Assembly (NCBI GenBank): GCA_964609395.1
Contig: CAZSRU010000001.1
Coordinates: forward strand, 7,324 to 71,323
Reading direction: 5' to 3'
DNA from: an uncultured Victivallales bacterium
GTDB lineage: Bacteria > Verrucomicrobiota > Kiritimatiellia > UBA8416
Length of the DNA: 64,000 bases
This document shows positions 8,660-62,443 of this stretch, one piece after another. The notes under the pieces were generated by a model, which saw only the letters and a list, made by a program, of their open reading frames with translations, was not told the DNA's origin and made no database searches. Position 1 is the first letter of the stretch. Each line of letters starts with the position of its first letter. The position numbers and the translations under genes are program-made.

Positions 8660-9436
8660 ATGACCGTGCTGCTGGGGGATTATCCGGTTGTCCTGTTGAT
8701 GGTGTTCTTCCGGGTGAGTGGTGTCCTGCTGGTTCTGCCGTTCTTCGGCATCCCGGCGGACAGCGGGTGGTTGCTGGCGGGAGCGTCGCTGCCGTTGACG
8801 CTTCTCTTCGCCAGCGTCATTTCACCATCCTGGAGTGCCGCCGCAGCCGCCCTGACCACAACGGGCGACTTGGTGCTGGCTATTTTTGGCGAAACCATGC
8901 TTGGCTCGGCGATCGGCTTGGTTTGCGGGATTTTTATCAACGCTTACGTGGTTGCCGGCACCCTTGCCAGCAGCGGATGTTCGCTGTCAATGGCCGAGGA
9001 ACTGGATCCGATAACCGGCGAGTCCTCGGATGTGCTGACGCAGGTTTGGCGCATGCTTTTCCTGTTGACGGTGCTGTCAACGGACGCGCACCTGATGGTT
9101 TTCCGCATCCTGGCGCGCACGTTCGAGCAACTGCCAGTGCCGTGGGTCGGTTGGGTGCATGGCGGACGCGACCTGGCATTGCTCGGGGGCACCGCATTCC
9201 GTGCCGGAATGTCGATCGCACTGCCGATTATTCTGGTTTCATTACTGGTCAGTATAGGTATGGCCTTGATCGCCCGAATGGCCTCCGGCTTTGATGTCAT
9301 GTTTCTCTCGCTGCCTTTCCGCTTGCTACTCGGGTTGAGTGTTTTTGCTCTTGCCTTGCTGTTGGGCGGCGGACTCCTGCGCACTATGGCATATCAGATG
9401 CTATCATCCTTGTCTCAGTTCCTAGGATGGTATTAA
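8660..9436 (+). CDS. fliR: Flagellar export gate protein FliR
   Basis: 258 aa polytopic membrane protein in fliPQR-flhB order. Confidence 0.85.
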   Translation: MTVLLGDYPVVLLMVFFRVSGVLLVLPFFGIPADSGWLLAGASLPLTLLFASVISPSWSAAAAALTTTGDLVLAIFGETMLGSAIGLVCGIFINAYVVAGTLASSGCSLSMAEELDPITGESSDVLTQVWRMLFLLTVLSTDAHLMVFRILARTFEQLPVPWVGWVHGGRDLALLGGTAFRAGMSIALPIILVSLLVSIGMALIARMASGFDVMFLSLPFRLLLGLSVFALALLLGGGLLRTMAYQMLSSLSQFLGWY

Positions 9437-32644: not shown

Positions 32645-32660
32645 AGCACCCTGCGTGCCA
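32645..32660 (-). promoter_or_regulatory. sigma54 promoter TGGCACgcaggGTGCT immediately upstream of flgB (-12 C is 15 nt before the ATG)
   Basis: Exact GG-N10-GC spacing with a TGGCAC -24 element; just downstream of the EBP gene stop. Confidence 0.6.
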
Positions 32661-32668
32661 TAGGCAAG

Positions 32669-34153
32669 TTACAGACCAGCCGGCAGGGAGCCTTCCTCGC
32701 GGTAGCGATTGAGCTTGTTTCGCAGCGTGCGGATGCTCACACCGAGCAGATCGGCCGCCTGGTTGCGCTGCCCATCGGTTTTTTCCATGGCGCGCAGGAT
32801 GGTTTGCCGTTCCAGCGCATCCAGGCATAGCGTCGTGTTGGCTGGGGAGGGGACCGCGCTGTCCGGGGCACATTCGCTCGCTGGCTTGCTTTCGGCGGGA
32901 GGCGTATGGGGGGGACTCTGCGTGGCCGGTTCCAGGATGGCCGAGTTCGCTCGTGTGCAGGTGCTGCCGTGCACTTCTGGCGGTAGCATCGCTGGCGTCA
33001 GTTCCGGCCCCTTTTCCATGACGCAGAGACGCTCAATCAGATGTTCCAGTTCGCGTACATTACCCGGCCAGGTGTAGCGGCACAGGATGTCGAGTGTGTC
33101 CTGGCGGAACCGCAAACCGTCGGTTTTGCCAGTCAGATTTCGAAGGTGCCGTTTGAGAAAGTTGTCTGCCAGCATCGGGATGTCCTCTGGCCGCTCGCGC
33201 AAGGGTGGCACATGGATGGGGACGACATTGAGCCGGTAGTATAGATCCTGCCGGAAGCCGCCCTCGCGCACATAGCTTTGCAGATCGCGGTTCGTGGTGG
33301 CAATGATCCGGCATTCCGCGCGCAGCGTTCGGCTTCCGCCAACACGTTCGAACTCACGCTCCTGAATCACGCGCAGCAGCTTCGCCTGCAGACCGAGCGG
33401 CATCTCGCTGATCTCGTCCAGCAGCAACGTCCCGTTGCCCGCGAGTTCGAAGCGTCCCGGGCGCCGGTTGATTGCCCCTGTAAAGGCCCCCTTCTCATGC
33501 CCGAAAAGTTCACTGTCGGCCAGCGATTCCGGTACGGCCGCGCAGTTCATACGCACAAAAGGACGTTTGCGGTATTCCCCGAGTCCGTGGATGGCCTGGG
33601 CTACTAATTCCTTACCCGTACCGCTTTCGCCTGAGATCAGTACCGTCGAGGAAGAAGCGGCGACGCGTTCAATCTGCTCGATCAGCTTTTGCATGGCGAC
33701 GGTTTGGCCGAGCAGGCGTTTTCCCTTTGGCATCGACCAGCCGAGCTCTTCCTTGAGATAGTCGTTTTGCGCATTGAGCCGCACCCACTCCTTTGCCCGG
33801 TTCAGGACGACTTCCACCTGCTCCGGTGAGAAGGGCTTCATGAGGAAGTCGATCGCTCCCAGTTTCATCGCTTCCACGGCTTGCTCCACGGTGCCGAAGG
33901 CGGTGACCATGACCGTCAGGGTCTCGATACCCGCCTCCTGCTTCCAGCGCAGCAGGTCCATGCCGCCTAGAACCGGCATTTTGATGTCGACGAAGGCCAT
34001 GTCGAAGTCGCGTTCTTCCATCAGTTTCTGTGCCTGTGCCCCATTACCAGCCTGCACCACCTCAATTCCAGCACGTGTGAGGGTTTCCACCACAAATTCG
34101 CGCATCAGTATGTCATCATCAACCACAAGCACGGTTTCAATACTGGAGATCAT
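32669..34153 (-). CDS. sigma54-dependent response regulator (FlrC/FleR-type: receiver + AAA+ + HTH)
   Basis: Receiver domain, GESGTGKE Walker A, GAFTGA-type sigma54 contact loop, C-terminal Fis-like HTH. Confidence 0.9.
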   Translation of the reverse strand: MISSIETVLVVDDDILMREFVVETLTRAGIEVVQAGNGAQAQKLMEERDFDMAFVDIKMPVLGGMDLLRWKQEAGIETLTVMVTAFGTVEQAVEAMKLGAIDFLMKPFSPEQVEVVLNRAKEWVRLNAQNDYLKEELGWSMPKGKRLLGQTVAMQKLIEQIERVAASSSTVLISGESGTGKELVAQAIHGLGEYRKRPFVRMNCAAVPESLADSELFGHEKGAFTGAINRRPGRFELAGNGTLLLDEISEMPLGLQAKLLRVIQEREFERVGGSRTLRAECRIIATTNRDLQSYVREGGFRQDLYYRLNVVPIHVPPLRERPEDIPMLADNFLKRHLRNLTGKTDGLRFRQDTLDILCRYTWPGNVRELEHLIERLCVMEKGPELTPAMLPPEVHGSTCTRANSAILEPATQSPPHTPPAESKPASECAPDSAVPSPANTTLCLDALERQTILRAMEKTDGQRNQAADLLGVSIRTLRNKLNRYREEGSLPAGL

Positions 34154-35427
34154 GCTTCCACTCCTGTTTTGGGTAATTCAACACTAAATAGACTGCCTCT
34201 GCCGGGTTCGCTGGAGATGTTGATCTCGCCACCGTGGATATCGATGATTTTGCGGGTGAGCGATAAGCCTAGGCCGGTGCCGCCTTCCTTGGATGTAAAG
34301 AAAGGATCAAACACTTTGGACACAAGCAACGCATCCATGCCGCACCCGTTGTCGCGCACATGCAAGGCGACCGTGTTGTGGCTATCGGTGGCCGATATAT
34401 GGACGGTGCCGGAGGCGTCGCAGGCCTCAATGGCGTTGATTCCCAGATTGAGCAGCGCTTGGGTTATCTGGCGGTAGTCACCGCGGAACTGTATGTCTGG
34501 CTCGGGCGGTGTCATGACGAGACAAACGCGGGTGCGTGTGGCCCGGTCTTCCAGTGTTTCCCGGCAGGATTCGAATACGGCCGCAACGGATACCTGTGAT
34601 ATCTGCAGACGCATCGGGCGTGCATAGGTCAGTAGGTTGGTGATGACATAATTCAGGTTCTGAGCGCCCTCGACGATCCGTTCCGCCAGGCGCAATGGGC
34701 CGGGCATGGTTTCCAGATCCCGTCGCAGCAGCCGTGCAAACCCTTCGATCGTACCCAGGGGATTGCGAATCTCGTGAGCCACGCTGGCTGCCATCTCGCC
34801 AAGGGCGGCAAGCCTCTCCTGGCTTTGGAGGCGCTTTTCCATGCGGCGGAATTCGGTGACATCACGCAGATTGCATATCGCACCCAGAATCTTGCCGTCG
34901 GGTGCGGTTACCGGGGCAAGACTCAGCAGTATTCGTCGCGTTTCGCCCTGCCCATGGCTCGTGGTCCAGGGATGGTCAAGCAATGGCGTGTCGCCGTGGA
35001 GTACCCGCCCCAGGTGTGATTCTGATTCCGGCGCCTGCACGATATGCGAGAACAAGGCATTCTCGATTTCCGGACGCGTTACCTGCAGCAGGCGGCATGC
35101 GGCTGAATTACACCGTTCAATACGCCCGTCCTGGCCGACGACCAACAACCCGTCGGTCAGGCTTTCAACCACGCTTTCCAACCGACTGGAGACCTGCCGG
35201 AGCGCTTGGTTCGTGGCCGTCAACTCGCTGTTACGCTCCTGCAGGGTCTTGTTGGAGCTGGCAAGGTCAGCTTCCAGTGAGCGGTAAGCCTTCTCCAGTT
35301 GGCGGCTTTGGCGCTCGAAGATTTCAAATGCCGACTGCACGGCCGCCAAGGTTCCGTCGTTTTGATTTGAAACCGGAACCGTCGCGGAAGGGGCTAGGGT
35401 ATGGATGGGAAGGTGAGGGGCCTGCAT
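34150..35427 (-). CDS. PAS-containing sensor histidine kinase (FlrB/FleS-type)
   Basis: PAS domain, HisKA (SVAHEIRNPL) and HATPase_c (GTGLGLS) motifs; overlaps the start of the cognate EBP gene. Confidence 0.85.
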   Translation of the reverse strand: MQAPHLPIHTLAPSATVPVSNQNDGTLAAVQSAFEIFERQSRQLEKAYRSLEADLASSNKTLQERNSELTATNQALRQVSSRLESVVESLTDGLLVVGQDGRIERCNSAACRLLQVTRPEIENALFSHIVQAPESESHLGRVLHGDTPLLDHPWTTSHGQGETRRILLSLAPVTAPDGKILGAICNLRDVTEFRRMEKRLQSQERLAALGEMAASVAHEIRNPLGTIEGFARLLRRDLETMPGPLRLAERIVEGAQNLNYVITNLLTYARPMRLQISQVSVAAVFESCRETLEDRATRTRVCLVMTPPEPDIQFRGDYRQITQALLNLGINAIEACDASGTVHISATDSHNTVALHVRDNGCGMDALLVSKVFDPFFTSKEGGTGLGLSLTRKIIDIHGGEINISSEPGRGSLFSVELPKTGVEA

Positions 35428-35753: not shown

Positions 35754-37985
35754 TCATAAGGCGGCTGCCCGTGCCCGCATCGAAAGTTGGTCTGTCTTTT
35801 GGATCCAGTCGCGAAGGGCATCGGCAGAAAGGAGGGTGTCGCCAGCCGGTGTCTGCTTATCGGAGATGGCTTGCCGCCCCATCCACGCCATGACGGTTGC
35901 CGCTGGTTCCTTCGCGATCAGTCGCGTAAGCGTCTGTATCCGGTATTGTTCCAGTGGCAACTGCGCTCGCCAGTACGAATCACTTTCCATTTGCGAAAGC
36001 AGTTGGTCAATACGCCCGTAGGCCTCGTTTTGTATCAACCGGTCCATCACGGCATCTGCCGTGGCCAGCATCAGTGCTTTCGGCGGCTTGGCTGGCGCTG
36101 GGCGAGGGTGGACTGTCGGTTGTGTCGCCAGTGCCGTTAAATCGGGAACCAGAATTTCAAATAGCGTTGTCAGCAAGGCGTCGCCAGAAGGTCCGCAGGT
36201 TTGCCGCCAGCGCCTGATGGCTTCCTTGTGCTGGCCTTGCCGCATGGCAATCGCGGCCCACAACGGTGTCGATTCAGGCCAGATGCCGGCCCACTCGGAA
36301 TGGGTGTTCAGCGTCCGTAGTATCTGATCGGCATCGCGGTCGCGCTCCATGCTTAAGAGCACTCGCGCTTGCCCCAGCATGGCTTGAGCCAGGGTTGAAC
36401 TCTTGTCGCCCGCCTTCTGTGAATGTAAGCTTGCCAACAGGATTGCATGCCTGTAATACGTTTCAGCCGCGGCTGGCAGCGAAAGTTCCTCAAGCCGTTG
36501 GGCGGTGATCAGAAGGCCCTCGGAGCTGCGCTCATCCTGCGGGAATCGCATCGTGGCGTCGATCGCACTTCCAACCAGGCCGGCGGTGGCGTTCGGATCC
36601 TTGGCCAGTGCTTTTAAAAGGCTGTGGCGGGCATGGGTGTCCAATGGTTTGTCTGTGTTTAGCGATATCAGTTTGTAGAGATACCGGACCTGTGCATCGA
36701 GATTACCGCGTCTGGCTGCTAGATCGGCTTGCACTTCAAATTCCTTGGCTGGATTCGTCGCCTTGCTGGCTTGCGCCTGCGCTGCTGCCAGATAGCGTTC
36801 GGCTCGATCCAGTTCATCACGTCCTATTGCCGTTCTGGCGGCACGAACCAGGATGTTGTAGGGCTCTGCTTGCCCAGGCTTCAGCATGCCTAGCTGTCGA
36901 TCAAGCGTTGAGAGGAGTTGGCCTACCCGCGCGGTATCGGTTGTGGACGCGAGTTCATGGCCCAGATCGATCAGAGCCGTTTCCTGTAGATGCGTGTCGG
37001 CGAACATCAGCAGTCTGGCAGCGGCGACATCCTCGATGGATCGTTCCTGCCGCAGCAAGGCAAGCAGACGCTGCGCGGCCTGCCGGCGGCCGGGTGCAGA
37101 GGTGTTGTAGGCCGCTCGCTGAAGAGCGGTAATGGCTTGACTCGTGTTGTTGCTTCTGATGGCGATTTGGGCGAGAATGATCTGCGATTCCTGCATTATC
37201 TGCGAGTTGTTGCTTTGCGCCAATGTGTTGGCGTTCTCGGTCAGTTGCTGTTTTATCTGATCCCGTTTCTCACTGGGTGTTGCCCCTTCGAAATGTGAAC
37301 TGAGCGCATCGAACCATTTCTGGTTTGTGTATATCCGCCAAAGCACTCTGGTCTCACCGTGCAATGCCTTGGTTTGCTGTTCCCCGATCTCGGCAGTTGG
37401 CTTGAGCGCACGAAGGCTTGCATAGGCCGGGGCGGCGTACCCAAAGTCAAATAAGACCTGGAATTCGAGCAGGTTCAAGTCAAATGGCAGTTTGCCTTGG
37501 TCGCGAACCCTCGCGAGAATGCGATTCGCATGCTGTAGGGATTGCTGGTCGCGCAGTTTGCTGGCCAGTTGCAGGAAAACCGTTGCCAAATCGACCGCGA
37601 TGCAATCATCGATATCCTGTTTTACAAGCACGTCCGCGTAATTGGCCGCCATGCGATAACGCTGCCAAGCGGGGCGCCAGTTGTCATCTTTTAGCAGGAA
37701 TTTCGTCATGGCCATAATGGCGGTGTTCTTCTGTTTGGGCGTTTCTGCAATCTCAATGGCATCGCTAAAGAAGATGAAGGCCATGAGCGGATCATTCGCC
37801 TTGTCGCGTTTTTCTGCCCACTGTAGCATCAGAACGTCGGCGGGAGGCAGCTCTTGGATGATATAACGATGGACCATCACTCCGGTCATCGAGGTTGTAA
37901 ACGCCAGGCCGATGCCCATCATGGCCAGTGTAAGAAAAAGTGCGGAGCCTTGCTTCGCGCGAGAATGTCTATTGTGTGCTGTCAT
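35754..37985 (-). CDS. Large single-pass membrane protein with extended alpha-helical (TPR-like) repeats
   Basis: 743 aa; one N-terminal TM helix (ALFLTLAMMGIGLAFTTSMTGVMV) then an Ala/Leu/Gln/Arg-rich helical region. Confidence 0.55.
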   Translation of the reverse strand: MTAHNRHSRAKQGSALFLTLAMMGIGLAFTTSMTGVMVHRYIIQELPPADVLMLQWAEKRDKANDPLMAFIFFSDAIEIAETPKQKNTAIMAMTKFLLKDDNWRPAWQRYRMAANYADVLVKQDIDDCIAVDLATVFLQLASKLRDQQSLQHANRILARVRDQGKLPFDLNLLEFQVLFDFGYAAPAYASLRALKPTAEIGEQQTKALHGETRVLWRIYTNQKWFDALSSHFEGATPSEKRDQIKQQLTENANTLAQSNNSQIMQESQIILAQIAIRSNNTSQAITALQRAAYNTSAPGRRQAAQRLLALLRQERSIEDVAAARLLMFADTHLQETALIDLGHELASTTDTARVGQLLSTLDRQLGMLKPGQAEPYNILVRAARTAIGRDELDRAERYLAAAQAQASKATNPAKEFEVQADLAARRGNLDAQVRYLYKLISLNTDKPLDTHARHSLLKALAKDPNATAGLVGSAIDATMRFPQDERSSEGLLITAQRLEELSLPAAAETYYRHAILLASLHSQKAGDKSSTLAQAMLGQARVLLSMERDRDADQILRTLNTHSEWAGIWPESTPLWAAIAMRQGQHKEAIRRWRQTCGPSGDALLTTLFEILVPDLTALATQPTVHPRPAPAKPPKALMLATADAVMDRLIQNEAYGRIDQLLSQMESDSYWRAQLPLEQYRIQTLTRLIAKEPAATVMAWMGRQAISDKQTPAGDTLLSADALRDWIQKTDQLSMRARAAAL

Positions 37986-39423: not shown

Positions 39424-40800
39424 TCAGATAGTTATGCTGTGATCCTTGATTTTTCTTAGCAAGGAACTGCGATGGATTTTTAGAATTTCGGCCGCTTGGC
39501 CGCGATGTCCGCTCACGTCGCGCAAAACACGCATAATCAACTGTCGTTCGCATTCGGCAAGGCTCATGGATGGAATCTCAGAGGTCTGACCGGTGGGGGG
39601 CTGTGTTTTGGCCGGTGTTGCTTGTTTGCCGTTTGGAATGGCAAGATCCTTGGCATCAATCTCGTTGCCTGTACACAGAATGACGCCGCGTTCGATCGAA
39701 TGGCGCAGCTCACGGACGTTCCCTGGCCAGTCATAAGCGCAAAGTGCTTCCATGGCCGCCGTCGTGAATCCACTAAGGTGGCTGCCTGCTGTTTTTTTGT
39801 GATGATTGAGGCACTGTTCCGCAAGCTTTGGAATACTTTCCGGGTGCTCACGCAGCGGCGGCAGGGTCAGGGGGAAGACCGACAAACGGTAATAGAGATC
39901 CTCGCGGAACGTACCATCCTTTACCATTTCCTGTAGATTGCGGCAGGTGGCGGCGACGATGCGCACATCCACCTGAATGACTCGGCTCCCGCCTAAACGG
40001 CGGAATTGCTTGTCCTCGATCACCTTTAGCAGTTTCGCCTGCAGAGCGGGGGCCATATCGCCGATCTCATCGAGGAAAACCGTGCCGCCATCGGCGATTT
40101 CAAGCAAACCGGGTTTGCTGACCTTGGCATCAGTGAAGGCACCTTTCTCATAACCGAAAACCTCGCTTTCCATCAACGGCCCCGGAATCGCCGAGCAATT
40201 GATGTCGACAAACGGCTTCGCGGCACGTGCGCTGAGGCGATGCACGGCAGACGCCATCATTCCTTTTCCAGTTCCGCTTTCCCCTAAAAGCAGCACCGTC
40301 GTGTCGGGGAAGGCGGCAATGCGCTGTACTTTTGTAAAGAGATCACGCAGGGCTCCGCCGCCAATCATCTCGTCGAGCTGCCAGACGTCGCCGCCGGAAC
40401 CGGTCGATAGCCGCGCGAGTCCCTCCACGCGCTCTTCCATGTTGACCGCTTTCTCAACATTACGGATGATTTTCTCAAGTTGCTCGTTTTCGTACGGTTT
40501 AGGTAAGTAGTCGTAGGCCCCGCTGCGAATGGCTTGAATGGCTGATCTGACATCGCTGTGGCCGGTTACAAAAACAACGTAAGCTCCCTTTGATAAGCCG
40601 TTGATCTCTTCAAGGAAATGGAAACTGTCGCCGTCGGGTAATCGCCGGTCAAGAAAGATCAGCTTGAATTGATTATCCTTCAGTCGGCTGCGTGCTTCGC
40701 TTAACGAATCGCAGGCTTTGACGTCGTGGCCTTTGCGCTTTAAAAGGTCAAACATGACCTTGCGCTGGATTTCGTCATCTTCAACGATTAGAATATCCAT
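39424..40800 (-). CDS. sigma54-dependent response regulator (NtrC/FlgR-family, second copy)
   Basis: Receiver + AAA+ (GESGTGKG) + GAFTDA + C-terminal HTH. Confidence 0.9.
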   Translation of the reverse strand: MDILIVEDDEIQRKVMFDLLKRKGHDVKACDSLSEARSRLKDNQFKLIFLDRRLPDGDSFHFLEEINGLSKGAYVVFVTGHSDVRSAIQAIRSGAYDYLPKPYENEQLEKIIRNVEKAVNMEERVEGLARLSTGSGGDVWQLDEMIGGGALRDLFTKVQRIAAFPDTTVLLLGESGTGKGMMASAVHRLSARAAKPFVDINCSAIPGPLMESEVFGYEKGAFTDAKVSKPGLLEIADGGTVFLDEIGDMAPALQAKLLKVIEDKQFRRLGGSRVIQVDVRIVAATCRNLQEMVKDGTFREDLYYRLSVFPLTLPPLREHPESIPKLAEQCLNHHKKTAGSHLSGFTTAAMEALCAYDWPGNVRELRHSIERGVILCTGNEIDAKDLAIPNGKQATPAKTQPPTGQTSEIPSMSLAECERQLIMRVLRDVSGHRGQAAEILKIHRSSLLRKIKDHSITI

Positions 40801-41552
40801 TATGGTGTTGCCCTTTCTGCGGCATCAGACGGCGGCATCGGCATGGTCGGGCAAGATAACGTCACGGTCCATTCGTTTGCTCGGCATGGCGCCAGTTCCG
40901 CTGTGCAATCACCGCCGGTGAGGCGGGCCAGGCGTTGCGCCAACGCAAGCCCCAGGCCGAGGTGGCGTGGTCGTGTTGTGTAAAAAGGTAGAAAAGCCTG
41001 ATCTCGCAGGGCGGCGTCGATGCCAGGCCCCGAATCGGACACGGTCCATGCGATGCCGTCTTCGTTCGCCTGTAGGTGCAGGCCGACAATACCGCGCGGC
41101 ACAGCCTCGCAGGCGTTGGTCAGGAGTTCCTGCAAGGCGATTCGCATGATCGACGGCGCGGCTGTTGCCGCGTCACCCTGTTGGCGGATCTCTACATTCG
41201 GGAAACGGCGGGCTACGGCCGCCATGGCTTCTGCGGTTATGTCGGATACGAACTCTGGCCGAATCGCGGGGTCGCGTTCCCAGTACAGGCTGAATCGATT
41301 GGCCATATCGGTTAGCGAATCACACTCCCGGAGCATTAAGGGAAAGTACTCGCGAAGATCGGGAGCAAGGGCGCTTCCTGCATCGGATTCGATGAGGTTC
41401 ACGGCCCCGCTGATGCCTGAGGCGATGTTCCGCAGACGGTGCCGCAGCACATGCGACATGCGCTCTAAGTCGTCGGTGCTTAAATGGGGTGGAGTAACTG
41501 AAATCATTGTTTTTCTTATACAACTCGTGTCGGGCGGTGTCAAGAAAGTCAT
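40800..41552 (-). CDS. Soluble histidine kinase (FlgS-like, no TM segments)
   Basis: 250 aa; HisKA H-box (SHVLRHRLRNIASG) and HATPase_c (GLGLALAQRLARLTGG). Confidence 0.8.
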   Translation of the reverse strand: MTFLTPPDTSCIRKTMISVTPPHLSTDDLERMSHVLRHRLRNIASGISGAVNLIESDAGSALAPDLREYFPLMLRECDSLTDMANRFSLYWERDPAIRPEFVSDITAEAMAAVARRFPNVEIRQQGDAATAAPSIMRIALQELLTNACEAVPRGIVGLHLQANEDGIAWTVSDSGPGIDAALRDQAFLPFYTTRPRHLGLGLALAQRLARLTGGDCTAELAPCRANEWTVTLSCPTMPMPPSDAAERATP

Positions 41553-44982: not shown

Positions 44983-44998
44983 AGCAGGGTTAATGCCA
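44983..44998 (-). promoter_or_regulatory. sigma54 promoter TGGCATtaaccCTGCT upstream of fliD (-12 C is 17 nt before the ATG)
   Basis: Exact -24/-12 spacing; core GCTAGCAGGGT shared with the LysM-operon promoter. Confidence 0.6.
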
Positions 44999-59845: not shown

Positions 59846-60001
59846 ATGAAAGCATTCGTTAAGCGGGAAGAGAATTTGAAATCCAAGGTGACGGTCAAGA
59901 AAAGCACGGTGGCTACCGACTGCTTGCAACAGGCAGCCGATTGGCTGGGGCTTTACAGTCGTATTCTTGAGAACCTACAGGTGGCGAGGGCCGCCCGGTG
60001 A
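59846..60001 (+). CDS. Small 51 aa ORF with strong RBS (AGGAGG), stop overlapping the GTG start of the next gene
   Basis: GGAGG 7 nt upstream of the ATG; GTGA overlap with the HAD-like gene; below the ORF-track size cutoff. Confidence 0.35.
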   Translation: MKAFVKREENLKSKVTVKKSTVATDCLQQAADWLGLYSRILENLQVARAAR

Positions 60002-60714
60002 AGACCCCCGGCGAGAATGCAGCTTTGCATGCATCCCGCTCAGCATCTCCAACGGTCATTTGCTGGCTGGATGATGTGCTTTATCCCGCGCGCATGTATC
60101 ATGAAGGTGCCTGTCGCGCCGGGGCGGGATTGCTGCGTCACCTGATCGGTGTCGATATGCATGACGCCCTTTCGGTCTGCTACGTTCCGGGACGAGAAGA
60201 GGATACGGTACGCAAGGTCCTTTCAGGCGTCGGCACGAAAACCGATGAACGGCTCGTCCGCAAGGTTGCCGAGGCCATGGCTGTGCATACACCGCAGGTT
60301 TCCCCCTATGCGGATGCGCTTGAGACCTTTGGGATTCTACAGGCGCTCGGGGTTTCGCTCTGGTTGCTTGGCGAAGGACCGCCACGCGCACAGCGCTTGG
60401 TTGCTGATCGACTGGGGCTTGGCCGCGTGTTTCAGGGGGTGGCTTATTCGGATCCTCACCAGAGTAAATACGAATGGCAGGATTCTCTGATGCTACTGGA
60501 GCTCGCCGCCGGCGTGGAGGCCGATCAGTCCGTGCTGGTGTGTGCCGATCCGGTCCGCGTGGCCGCCATCGCGAAGCAGGGCAGGCGTGTCTATTACCTT
60601 GATCGAAAGGCGGATCCGATCGCCCGCCGCCCGCCGGTTCCTAACGTGATCCCGATGCTGAACCTATACGACCTGCCGGAGGCGCTGGGGTTAGTGGCCT
60701 GGGATCGGAATTGA
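59998..60714 (+). CDS. HAD-superfamily-like hydrolase (degenerate motifs)
   Basis: N-terminal VICWLDDVLYP (motif I-like) and C-terminal VLVCADPVRVAAIAKQG (motif IV-like). Confidence 0.45.
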   Translation: MKTPGENAALHASRSASPTVICWLDDVLYPARMYHEGACRAGAGLLRHLIGVDMHDALSVCYVPGREEDTVRKVLSGVGTKTDERLVRKVAEAMAVHTPQVSPYADALETFGILQALGVSLWLLGEGPPRAQRLVADRLGLGRVFQGVAYSDPHQSKYEWQDSLMLLELAAGVEADQSVLVCADPVRVAAIAKQGRRVYYLDRKADPIARRPPVPNVIPMLNLYDLPEALGLVAWDRN

Positions 60715-60837
60715 CGCGCTCCGTATGTCGCAATAAGCGACAGGAATCAACTGGACCGATGTGTGCGCCTTTTTTGGTTAAAACGTAATATGTTTATAAT
60801 TAGATAGTTGCGCTAATATTCTGACATTGTTAAAGGT

Positions 60838-60853
60838 TGGCACGCATATTGCA
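60838..60853 (+). promoter_or_regulatory. Consensus sigma54 promoter TGGCACGcataTTGCA upstream of rpoN, preceded by a ~60 nt AT-rich tract
   Basis: Perfect match to TGGCACG-N4-TTGCA; 53 nt upstream of the rpoN ATG. Confidence 0.7.
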
Positions 60854-60904
60854 TTGGTAATCATCAACGAAGTGTTGTTAACTACTCTTTGATTGGTGGG
60901 AACC

Positions 60905-62443
60905 ATGAATATAAATTTCAACTTGTCCGGTAACGTCTCCCAGCAGCAGCAGCTTAATCTGGCCCCACAACTGCTGCAATGGCTGCGCCTTCTCCAGGTG
61001 CCGGCGCAGCATTTGGAACAGATGGTTCGGAGTGAGATTGAAACCAATCCCGCGCTGGAAGTCGATGAGAGTGCCCCCGCCGCACCGGATGATGCCGACC
61101 TTTACGCCGAGCCATCGGCGGATGTGCGTGACGCGGATTCCGAGCGTGAAGGCAGGGAATTGGAGGAGCGTTTTGAAATCCTTGCTGAAATCGATTCGCA
61201 ATGGGCGGATGAAAACCGCAATATGGCGGGCGAGGATCTCGGTCGTACGCAGGACCGGATCGACTATCAGTTGCAGTCACTGGTGTCTGCCTCTTCCCTT
61301 CAGGAACATCTTCTTCGCCAGTTGGCGGTGATGAATAAGCCGGATGTCCTGAAGGTCAATGCGGGATTGATTGTTGGAATGCTGGATGAGCGCGGCTATC
61401 TGGACGTCTCGCTGGATGAATTGGCCGAAGAACTCGCACTTGCCGTTGAGGTGGTGGAGGATGCCCTCGCGGTGGTTCAGGAATGTGATCCGATAGGCGT
61501 TGGTGCCCGTGATTTGCGTGAATGCCTTCTCTTGCAGTTATCGCCGACGGACGACGCCCATGCGGTTGCCCGGCGAATCGTATCCCGCTATATCGAGGCG
61601 CTGGCGCGTGGGCAGCTTGAGGGCATCGCCCGTCAGTTGGGGGTGTCTTTGGCCGAGGTTGAGTCGGCAGTAAAGCTGATCCGCACACTCAACCCGACTC
61701 CCGGCAAGACGTTTGAAGAGCAGAAGATGGTTACGCAGACGGTGACGCCCGATATTTCCATCCGGCGCAACGCGGAAGGGGGCTTTGATATTGAAATGGT
61801 TGAACAGTCGCTGCCGCGACTGCGCATCAGCCCCTATTGCCGACGCATGATCGAGCAAGGCGGCTTGTCAAAAACGGATTTGGCCTATATTCGTTCCCGT
61901 ATCCGTGCCGCCTCTTTCCTGATAGAGGGACTTGAAAAACGCGGGTCGACATTGCGGCGCATTGCAGAGGAGATTATCCGCGGCCAGCACCGCTTCCTGC
62001 GGGGGGAGGAAAGCGAGATCCGGCCCCTGACCATGGCCAAGGTGGCGAGCTTTATCGGGGTGCATGACACCACCGTCAGCCGTGCCCTGGCTGACAAGTA
62101 TGTCTCCACGCCGGTTGGCGTGTTGCCCATGAAAGCGTTTTTCTGCACCGGATATCGGTGCGATGATGGCAGTGCCATGACACCGGAAATGGTGCGCCGG
62201 CGCATCGAGCAGATGATTCTCGATGAAGAACCCGGAAAACCGATCAAGGACGAATGTATTGCCGCTCAGTTGCGTGAGAGTGGTGTTGTGGTAGCCCGTC
62301 GTACGGTTGCCAAATATAGAGGCGAATTGGGATTGCCATCATCGAAGGAACGTGCGCAGGCACGCCGCCAGGGCCTACGGGTTATCCATGGCTCCGGCAA
62401 TCCTGCTGCAAGCATCGAACCGGTGGCAGTGGCTTTTGGATAA
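60905..62443 (+). CDS. rpoN: RNA polymerase sigma54 factor RpoN (start at ATG 60905)
   Basis: Region I (LNLAPQLLQWLRLLQVP), core-binding and DNA-binding regions, RpoN box ARRTVAKYR. Confidence 0.95.
   Translation: MNINFNLSGNVSQQQQLNLAPQLLQWLRLLQVPAQHLEQMVRSEIETNPALEVDESAPAAPDDADLYAEPSADVRDADSEREGRELEERFEILAEIDSQWADENRNMAGEDLGRTQDRIDYQLQSLVSASSLQEHLLRQLAVMNKPDVLKVNAGLIVGMLDERGYLDVSLDELAEELALAVEVVEDALAVVQECDPIGVGARDLRECLLLQLSPTDDAHAVARRIVSRYIEALARGQLEGIARQLGVSLAEVESAVKLIRTLNPTPGKTFEEQKMVTQTVTPDISIRRNAEGGFDIEMVEQSLPRLRISPYCRRMIEQGGLSKTDLAYIRSRIRAASFLIEGLEKRGSTLRRIAEEIIRGQHRFLRGEESEIRPLTMAKVASFIGVHDTTVSRALADKYVSTPVGVLPMKAFFCTGYRCDDGSAMTPEMVRRRIEQMILDEEPGKPIKDECIAAQLRESGVVVARRTVAKYRGELGLPSSKERAQARRQGLRVIHGSGNPAASIEPVAVAFG

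Follow-up and report, generated by a model that had tools for sequence, protein, structure and literature searches.

Is rpoN, the gene for sigma-54, itself transcribed by sigma-54 in an uncultured clade of the PVC lineage, and which sign would the resulting feedback have? Sigma-54 is usually treated as constitutively present, with its activity set wholly by activators. An rpoN gene behind an enhancer-dependent promoter would turn the amount of sigma-54 into a regulated, possibly bistable, variable. We consider this question for the stretch of DNA given above; the window denotes this whole stretch at its full length of 64 kb.

The rpoN gene and its surroundings

The window, which also encodes FliA, is one large flagellar cluster with rpoN at the cluster end:

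60905-62443 (+), rpoN (sigma-54), 512 aa, with the Pfam domains Sigma54_AID, CBD and DBD and with NCBIfam TIGR02395 above cutoff

The NCBIfam score of this open reading frame is 367 bits against a cutoff of 277. The protein is intact, including the RpoN box (ARRTVAKYR), and the start codon (ATG at 60905) is backed by the alignment with relatives. The closest named RpoN relatives are found in MAGs labelled Verrucomicrobia, Kiritimatiellae, Lentisphaerae and Spartobacteria. A gene for a CMP-sugar synthetase follows rpoN after 22 nt, succeeded by NeuB and related genes that probably serve flagellin glycosylation. On the other side, between flgK and rpoN, are a 51-aa ORF (59846-60001, +) and a 238-aa, weakly HAD-like ORF (59998-60714, +). 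The syntenic relatives (L163-L172) all have this pair at the same place; L174, which is non-flagellar, has a HAD-like gene two genes upstream of rpoN.

A consensus sigma-54 promoter precedes rpoN

The core of the intergenic region comprises the following elements:

60838-60853 (+), sigma-54 promoter TGGCACG-CATA-TTGCA, the window's sole exact match to the consensus, with a conserved counterpart in all 11 relatives
60864 (+), predicted sigma-54 transcription start, placed by the fixed -24/-12 geometry, with a 41-nt leader
60895-60901 (+), Shine-Dalgarno-like GGTGGGA upstream of the rpoN ATG, as read from the sequence; relatives are G-rich at the same position

Promoters of the -24/-12 type have a fixed geometry, in which the start follows the GC at about 12 nt, and need sigma-54 as well as ATP hydrolysis by a bEBP. 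The box TGGCACGCATATTGCA at 60838-60853 (+) matches every specified position of TGGCACG-N4-TTGCW (16 of 16) and is the only exact sigma-54 consensus match on either strand of the window, where dinucleotide-preserving shuffles give a mean expectation of 0.01. The perfect-consensus motif that the sequence-only reading had placed before rpoN at these positions is thus confirmed, and it is unique in the window. Its GG (60839-60840, corresponding to -25/-24) and its GC (60851-60852, corresponding to -13/-12) are 10 nt apart. The 3' end of the box lies on the same strand (+) as rpoN, 51 nt from the ATG; the 53 nt given for this distance in the sequence-only reading is a trivial miscount. The predicted 5' leader of rpoN contains a palindrome GTTAAC (60878-60883) that recurs in the leaders of L163, L167 and L173 and could be a further operator or a chance occurrence.

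Conservation of the box among relatives

Close relatives were fetched via exact-protein contig look-ups. These were used because the motifs for an RpoN search are universal, so that scans of the collection were saturated with distant loci: two such scans gave only relatives at no more than 39% identity, which were kept as a background set. A -24/-12 box is present at the equivalent place in 11 of 11 relatives, whose RpoN proteins are 46-85% identical (85, 68, 67, 64, 61, 58, 56, 56, 47 and 46% for the relatives with upstream sequence). The boxes of the relatives read TGGCACGCATATTGCG, TGGCACACCAAATGCT, TGGCACGTATAATGCT, TGGCATGGATATTGCT, TGGCACGATAATCGCT, TGGCATGTTTGTTGCT, TGGCATGCATCATGCT, TGGCACATCCTATGCT, CGGCACGGTTTTTGCT and AGGCACGAATCCTGCT, with a distance to the start codon of typically 46-60 nt. 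In the MAFFT alignment TGGCA and GC are nearly invariant, and the intergenic flanks have diverged to a mean column identity of 40%. Nine of the 11 relatives have enough upstream sequence to be scored; all nine carry a box with at least 10 of 12 consensus positions in forward orientation, versus none on the reverse strand and none in the coding control of the same nine loci.

In three relatives (L171, L173 and L174) the rpoN box is present outside of flagellar clusters, and hence belongs to rpoN rather than to the flagellar cluster. On the grounds of its conservation, the box is a genuine, evolutionarily retained sigma-54 recognition element of rpoN and not a chance occurrence.

A conserved palindrome and an AT-rich spacer upstream of the box

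Further upstream, the intergenic region contains two elements, the first of which had been missed in the sequence-only reading:

60726-60742 (no strand), 17-bp palindrome TGTCGCA-ATA-AGCGACA (7-N3-7), candidate UAS for a bEBP, a conserved block in the MAFFT alignment
60770-60837 (+), AT-rich spacer between palindrome and promoter, containing the lowest-GC 60-mer; AT-rich in relatives too

NtrC-type sites have the same 7-N3-7 geometry. The centre of the palindrome is located 105 nt upstream of the -24 GG, at about -129 from the predicted start. In the window, as in five relatives, palindrome and GG are 105-110 nt apart; the spacings in two others, 93 and 119 nt, differ from those of the other six loci by about one helical turn. 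Such distances are typical of upstream activator sites, which lie about 80-150 bp from the promoter. The consensus for the clade is TGTCGCA-N3-TGCGACA. The palindrome likewise precedes rpoN in the non-flagellar locus L174, and in L171 too. At a threshold of at least 12 of 14 positions, it is found upstream of rpoN in five independent clade loci within 1.4 Mb of fetched loci; the three matches in the same 1.4 Mb that are not at rpoN correspond to chance level. No second good copy occurs in the window, including its ten flagellar sigma-54 promoters. A UAS of the NifA type (TGT-N10-ACA) was rejected for its wrong spacing, the dyad being TGT-N11-ACA (17 bp) in the window as well as in the relatives.

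A dyad of this kind might also act at the level of RNA. The palindrome can form a 6-bp hairpin and a T6 run is found about 30 nt further on, which would accord with the box being a chance match, or the region a hairpin or terminator of the upstream operon, devoid of promoter function. Yet the palindrome region folds no better than its shuffles (z = -0.30), an Rfam search of the upstream region gave no match at E ≤ 1, and in the alignment, where 87% of the cells can pair at the dyad, covariation stays within the range of the shuffles, with both half-sites holding one consensus instead of compensating changes. Since covariation is not above the shuffle control, the dyad is interpreted as a DNA site, not as an RNA helix; in L171, moreover, the upstream gene is divergent and the dyad is therefore not a terminator there. 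Hairpin, terminator and riboswitch were rejected on folding, Rfam and covariation. A box without promoter function is further opposed by the 0.01 exact matches expected and by its retention in all 11 relatives while the flanks have diverged. We regard this explanation as highly improbable and, as far as comparative sequence data go, effectively refuted. The palindrome behaves like a putative protein-binding DNA site, and constitutes the strongest argument for activator dependence.

The segment between palindrome and box is exceptional in composition. Positions 60779-60838 have 25% GC, the lowest value of all 60-nt windows (mean of the whole window 56.7% GC), with a fraction of 0.00014 of the 60-nt windows being as low. 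The spacer has 30-39% GC in all relatives, and a motif GTAATATGTTTAT(A/C)ATTAGA is common to the window and L169. The unusually AT-rich stretch of about 60 nt described from the sequence alone is thus corroborated and its AT-richness conserved; the suggestion that it contains an IHF site had to be dropped. No conserved match to the IHF consensus WATCAANNNNTTR is found across the loci between UAS and promoter, where only one-mismatch versions occur, in two loci and at differing positions. The spacer is probably a flexible or bent segment that permits looping. Palindrome, AT-rich spacer and consensus -24/-12 box together are the classic layout of an enhancer-dependent promoter.

Beyond the clade, the box and the elements upstream of it have different distributions. 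The strict pattern occurs upstream of rpoN in 8 of 149 distant loci from many phyla in forward orientation, versus 2 in reverse. In several distant loci from Chthoniobacterales and Verrucomicrobiales, YGGC...TGCT boxes precede the rpoN start by 44-69 nt. Boxes of the form YGGC(R/A)YG-N4-(T/C)TGCT were noted in L009, L015, L020, L021, L025, L028, L033, L040 and L041, within a narrow range of 35-69 nt from the estimated start. A dyad or AT tract comparable to that of the window is mostly absent in the distant Verrucomicrobiota with rpoN boxes, which may mean that the box originally served sigma-54 binding as such. A phylum-wide sigma-54 box at rpoN may predate the clade-specific enhancer module. 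The statement that sigma-54-driven transcription of rpoN is uncommon holds for the distant loci (8 of 149); it is overstated for Verrucomicrobiia and several other classes, where such promoters have been reported as enriched (PMC12316311), and is further weakened by experimental cases of rpoN autoregulation (PMC3538637, PMC8229486).

The flagellar sigma-54 promoters of the window

The relaxed pattern TGGCAY-N6-TGCW has 11 matches in the window versus 0.72 expected; canonical sigma-54 promoters are therefore in wide use in this organism. Besides the rpoN promoter, these are flagellar sigma-54-type promoters of the form TGGCAY-N5-NTGCT, ten in number:

7044 (+), 9387 (+), 17326 (+), 25892 (-), 32660 (-), first five flagellar promoters
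44998 (-), 46454 (+), 51655 (+), 53158 (+), 56425 (+), remaining five flagellar promoters

The genes behind them are fliO, flhB, a flagellin/FlgL-like gene, fliK, a fliF-containing operon, fliD, fliW, an unannotated ORF, a rod gene and flgI. Within the flagellar cluster, a 743-aa ORF (35754-37985, -) and a 278-aa ORF (51935-52771, +) have no Pfam or NCBIfam match; the latter is separated by about 265 nt, with an AT-rich stretch, from the sigma-54 promoter upstream of it (51655).

The -12 boxes of the flagellar promoters read NTGCT, their spacers are GC-rich, and the promoters directly adjoin or overlap the preceding genes, most of them being located within or at the very 3' end of the upstream gene. 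In contrast, the rpoN promoter has an AT-rich intergenic region of 190 bp of its own, a TTGCA -12 box and the palindrome. No element common to rpoN and the ten flagellar promoters was detected, as k-mer counts are not above background; with the palindrome likewise absent, a shared upstream or downstream element was rejected. The lack of a shared upstream activator site at the flagellar promoters suggests activators that act there without a conventional UAS.

These differences bear on the proposal that sigma-54-dependent rpoN transcription forms a feed-forward loop that locks in the flagellar programme. The rpoN promoter would then be an ordinary member of the flagellar regulon, fired by whichever activator or activators serve the structural operons, and would mainly co-express rpoN and the glycosylation genes with the flagellum. 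Such a role is suggested by the position of rpoN at the end of a cluster that contains ten sigma-54 promoters and two bEBPs, a candidate activator among them, by the CMP-sugar synthetase, NeuB and further genes only 22 nt behind rpoN, and by the rpoN2 paralogues inside flagellar loci of R. sphaeroides and Xanthomonas (PMC7277832, PMC8657755). However, the same promoter persists in L171, L173 and L174, and the palindrome in L171 and L174, in the absence of flagellar or glycosylation neighbours; the architecture of the rpoN promoter is unlike that of the flagellar ones, which argues against its being one more flagellar promoter, and neither a common element nor the palindrome links the two. We therefore consider the flagellar feed-forward loop improbable.

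A candidate activator

The window encodes two response-regulator bEBPs, each with a kinase gene next to it:

39424-40800 (-), response-regulator bEBP (REC-AAA+-HTH_8 by Pfam), orthologous to a bEBP of L172, the best activator candidate
40800-41552 (-), short histidine-kinase-like partner of the preceding bEBP, with NCBIfam kinase hits
32669-34153 (-), second bEBP (Response_reg, Sigma54_activat and HTH_8 by Pfam), adjoining a histidine kinase (34150-35427)

NCBIfam does not name the two activators, for which no equivalog cutoff is reached. A specific assignment is suggested by the relative L172, whose rpoN is preceded by promoter and palindrome as in the window, and is followed directly by a 223-aa kinase-like HATPase protein and then by a 463-aa response-regulator bEBP. 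The latter is 61% identical to the bEBP at 39424-40800, with a conserved C-terminal HTH, versus 36% to the other bEBP of the window (32669-34153); the 223-aa HATPase protein is 50% identical to the product of 40800-41552. From rpoN to the kinase and bEBP genes of L172, neither a sigma-54 box nor a sigma-70 match nor a terminator was found. With nothing separating them, the three genes look like one operon, as is common for a bEBP that activates its own expression, and this linkage makes the bEBP at 39424-40800 the best activator candidate. Judged by gene order in one relative, the activator of rpoN is most likely this response regulator together with the kinase at 40800-41552. The proposal that rpoN is driven from within the locus, by one or the other of its two activators, thereby gains support from the linkage of one orthologue, in a single relative. 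Because the palindrome is absent at the flagellar promoters, the same activator would have to act there differently or not at all.

Both bEBP genes (-) lie downstream of the fliD sigma-54 promoter (the sites concerned are 32645-32660, -, and 44983-44998, -). The activators thus look sigma-54-dependent themselves, which would constitute nested feedback. A further sigma-54 promoter begins 9 nt past the stop codon of the bEBP gene 32669-34153. In L172, another sigma-54 promoter, TGGCATGGGCCCTGCT (8683-8698, +), is located right after the bEBP gene that lies behind rpoN; a 222-aa ORF without family hit, whose annotated start overlaps this promoter, comes next, and then a response-regulator gene.

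Sigma-70-like hexamers and the sign of the feedback

The rpoN promoter also overlaps a pair of hexamers of a different type:

60821-60850 (+), sigma-70-like CTGACA (60821-60826), 18 nt, CATATT (60845-60850), 9 of 12 positions in the promoter scan

The -10-like CATATT is nested between the GG and the GC of the sigma-54 box. All 11 lineages have an AT-rich spacer in the box, and in 6 of them it contains a -10-like sequence (CATATT, GATATT, GATAAT, TATAAT, CATCAT). A recurrent WATATT is found 17-25 nt upstream of TGGCA, not separable from the AT-richness of the region. No conserved -35/-10 pair was found upstream of rpoN among the relatives, the -35 hexamer not being conserved, and the nested hexamers are therefore weak evidence of a basal promoter. 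The search for an additional sigma-70 promoter, which had been recommended from the sequence alone, thus yields a pair in the window (CTGACA-18-CATATT at 9 of 12) that is not conserved, and a conserved sigma-70 promoter was rejected, as the hexamer pairs are weak as well as non-conserved.

The nested hexamers allow for feedback of the opposite sign. The sigma-54 holoenzyme, bound to a high-affinity box, might occlude a nested or just-upstream sigma-70 promoter and keep the level of sigma-54 constant; the palindrome would then serve another regulator of the sigma-70 promoter. Such negative autoregulation would account for the scan match with its -10 between GG and GC and for the -10-like spacers in 6 of 11 lineages, unlike the flagellar promoters, and it would solve the bootstrapping problem. 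As a homeostatic device predicts, the box is found in all genomic contexts and, in distant Verrucomicrobiota, without the palindrome. There are also precedents in other bacteria. The rpoN gene of P. putida is negatively autoregulated. The equivalent place in Pseudomonas rpoN loci is taken by AGGCA-TATAAT-TTGCT: in L042, L060 and L117 the box AGGCATATAATTTGCT, 76-82 nt before the rpoN start, encloses a perfect TATAAT, a layout that, by sequence, fits promoter occlusion by the sigma-54 holoenzyme. Negative autoregulation of rpoN has been reported for R. leguminosarum (PMC3538637). Against occlusion, the -35 is not conserved, several relatives have no -10-like spacer, and chance alone should produce -10-like hexamers in AT-rich DNA. 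It also leaves unexplained the conserved dyad at enhancer distance with its AT-rich spacer, and the bEBP operon fused behind rpoN in L172. We consider occlusion as the main function of the box to be possible, yet rather unlikely.

Activation is favoured because of the conserved enhancer-like architecture and the operon of L172. The region upstream of rpoN would then be a complete enhancer-dependent sigma-54 promoter that gives positive feedback, a reading that we hold to be somewhat on the probable side. The sigma-54 holoenzyme would bind the consensus box tightly in a closed complex; an NtrC-family activator at the palindrome would loop across the AT-rich spacer and open the complex at the expense of ATP; and rpoN, probably also the sugar-nucleotide genes behind it, would be transcribed. 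Since the synthesis of sigma-54 would need sigma-54 as well as an activated bEBP, a positive feedback loop would result. Such a loop logically requires a sigma-54-independent source of basal rpoN mRNA, for which the nested sigma-70-like hexamers are the leading candidate; in case of their use, basal expression would in addition be restrained by the bound holoenzyme as long as the activator has not fired. Box, palindrome and base composition, their conservation and the linkage of the genes are observed in the sequences; binding, looping, the identity of the activator and the sign of the loop are steps that we infer. Of the positive autoregulation originally proposed, a conserved promoter and likely autoregulation are retained; the sign is not readable from the sequence.

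Occlusion at rest and activation on signal are compatible, and together would provide homeostasis as well as inducibility. In a combined and, in our estimation, speculative version, basal sigma-70 transcription of rpoN would be shut by its own holoenzyme, and the resulting closed complex fired by one two-component bEBP. The 7-N3-7 enhancer, the AT-rich spacer and the -24/-12 box with a nested sigma-70 -10 would then constitute a toggle module that renders sigma-54 inducible instead of constitutive, throughout an uncultured PVC lineage. If so, members of the clade with the gene order of L172 would harbor a double positive loop of sigma factor and activator with built-in homeostasis.

We note that a regulatory map of an uncultured flagellated PVC group also emerges from the analysis, in which FliA and two two-component activators accompany eleven sigma-54 promoters. 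A candidate activator/operator pair that is open to testing is formed by the palindrome TGTCGCA-N3-AGCGACA with the bEBP at 39424-40800. Enhancer, spacer and perfect core promoter are compact natural parts that could be reconstituted in E. coli.

Comparison with known systems

The closest counterpart to the preferred reading, positive feedback through an enhancer-dependent promoter, is the prxS-rpoN2 arrangement of R. etli and M. loti, in which rpoN transcription is dependent on NifA and sigma-54 and for which an extra weak promoter has been described (PMC3538637). As in prxS-rpoN2, the rpoN gene of the window is found behind a -24/-12 promoter with an upstream bEBP site, the latter being a candidate by sequence. 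The rhizobial gene is a second, symbiosis-specific copy behind prxS, controlled by NifA via a TGT-N10-ACA UAS. In the window, unlike prxS-rpoN2, the promoter lies directly upstream of rpoN and is combined with a TGT-N11-ACA dyad, in a flagellar context and in a PVC lineage. A second counterpart is the flagellar rpoN of the gammaproteobacterium S. maltophilia, whose promoter activity is abolished in an rpoN mutant, corresponding to positive autoregulation in a flagellar regulatory context (PMC8229486). The part of that account considered here describes no anatomy of palindrome, AT tract and consensus box comparable to that of the window.

The Pseudomonas loci resemble the window in that their box encloses TATAAT, as that of the window encloses CATATT. 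They differ in that their boxes are imperfect (AGGCAT) and come without enhancer-like dyad or AT-rich spacer, whereas the box of the window is perfect and has a dyad 105 nt upstream.

Within the same phylum, a PSSM survey published in PLoS One in 2025 found predicted sigma-54 promoters upstream of rpoN to be enriched in Verrucomicrobiia, Planctomycetia and other classes, and read them as "implying autoregulation" (PMC12316311). Both studies place rpoN in its own regulon by promoter prediction, in agreement with our scan of distant loci. The survey is based on COG enrichment and does not describe promoter architecture; here, the palindrome, the spacer and the linkage to a kinase and bEBP are described in one uncultured clade. 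With respect to operon structure, L172 resembles glnA-ntrBC and zraSR, the latter an operon autoregulated by ZraR (PMC12316311), in that kinase and bEBP are part of one apparent operon with a sigma-54 promoter and an upstream dyad. Unlike in glnA-ntrBC and zraSR, the operon begins with a sigma factor gene (L172), or such a gene is the sole regulator gene behind the promoter (window). No new principle is involved, since rpoN autoregulation of either sign has been documented and the promoters of Verrucomicrobiia have already been described computationally. What is new is the architecture of the promoter, how deeply it is conserved within one uncultured PVC clade, and the naming of one particular bEBP as candidate activator.
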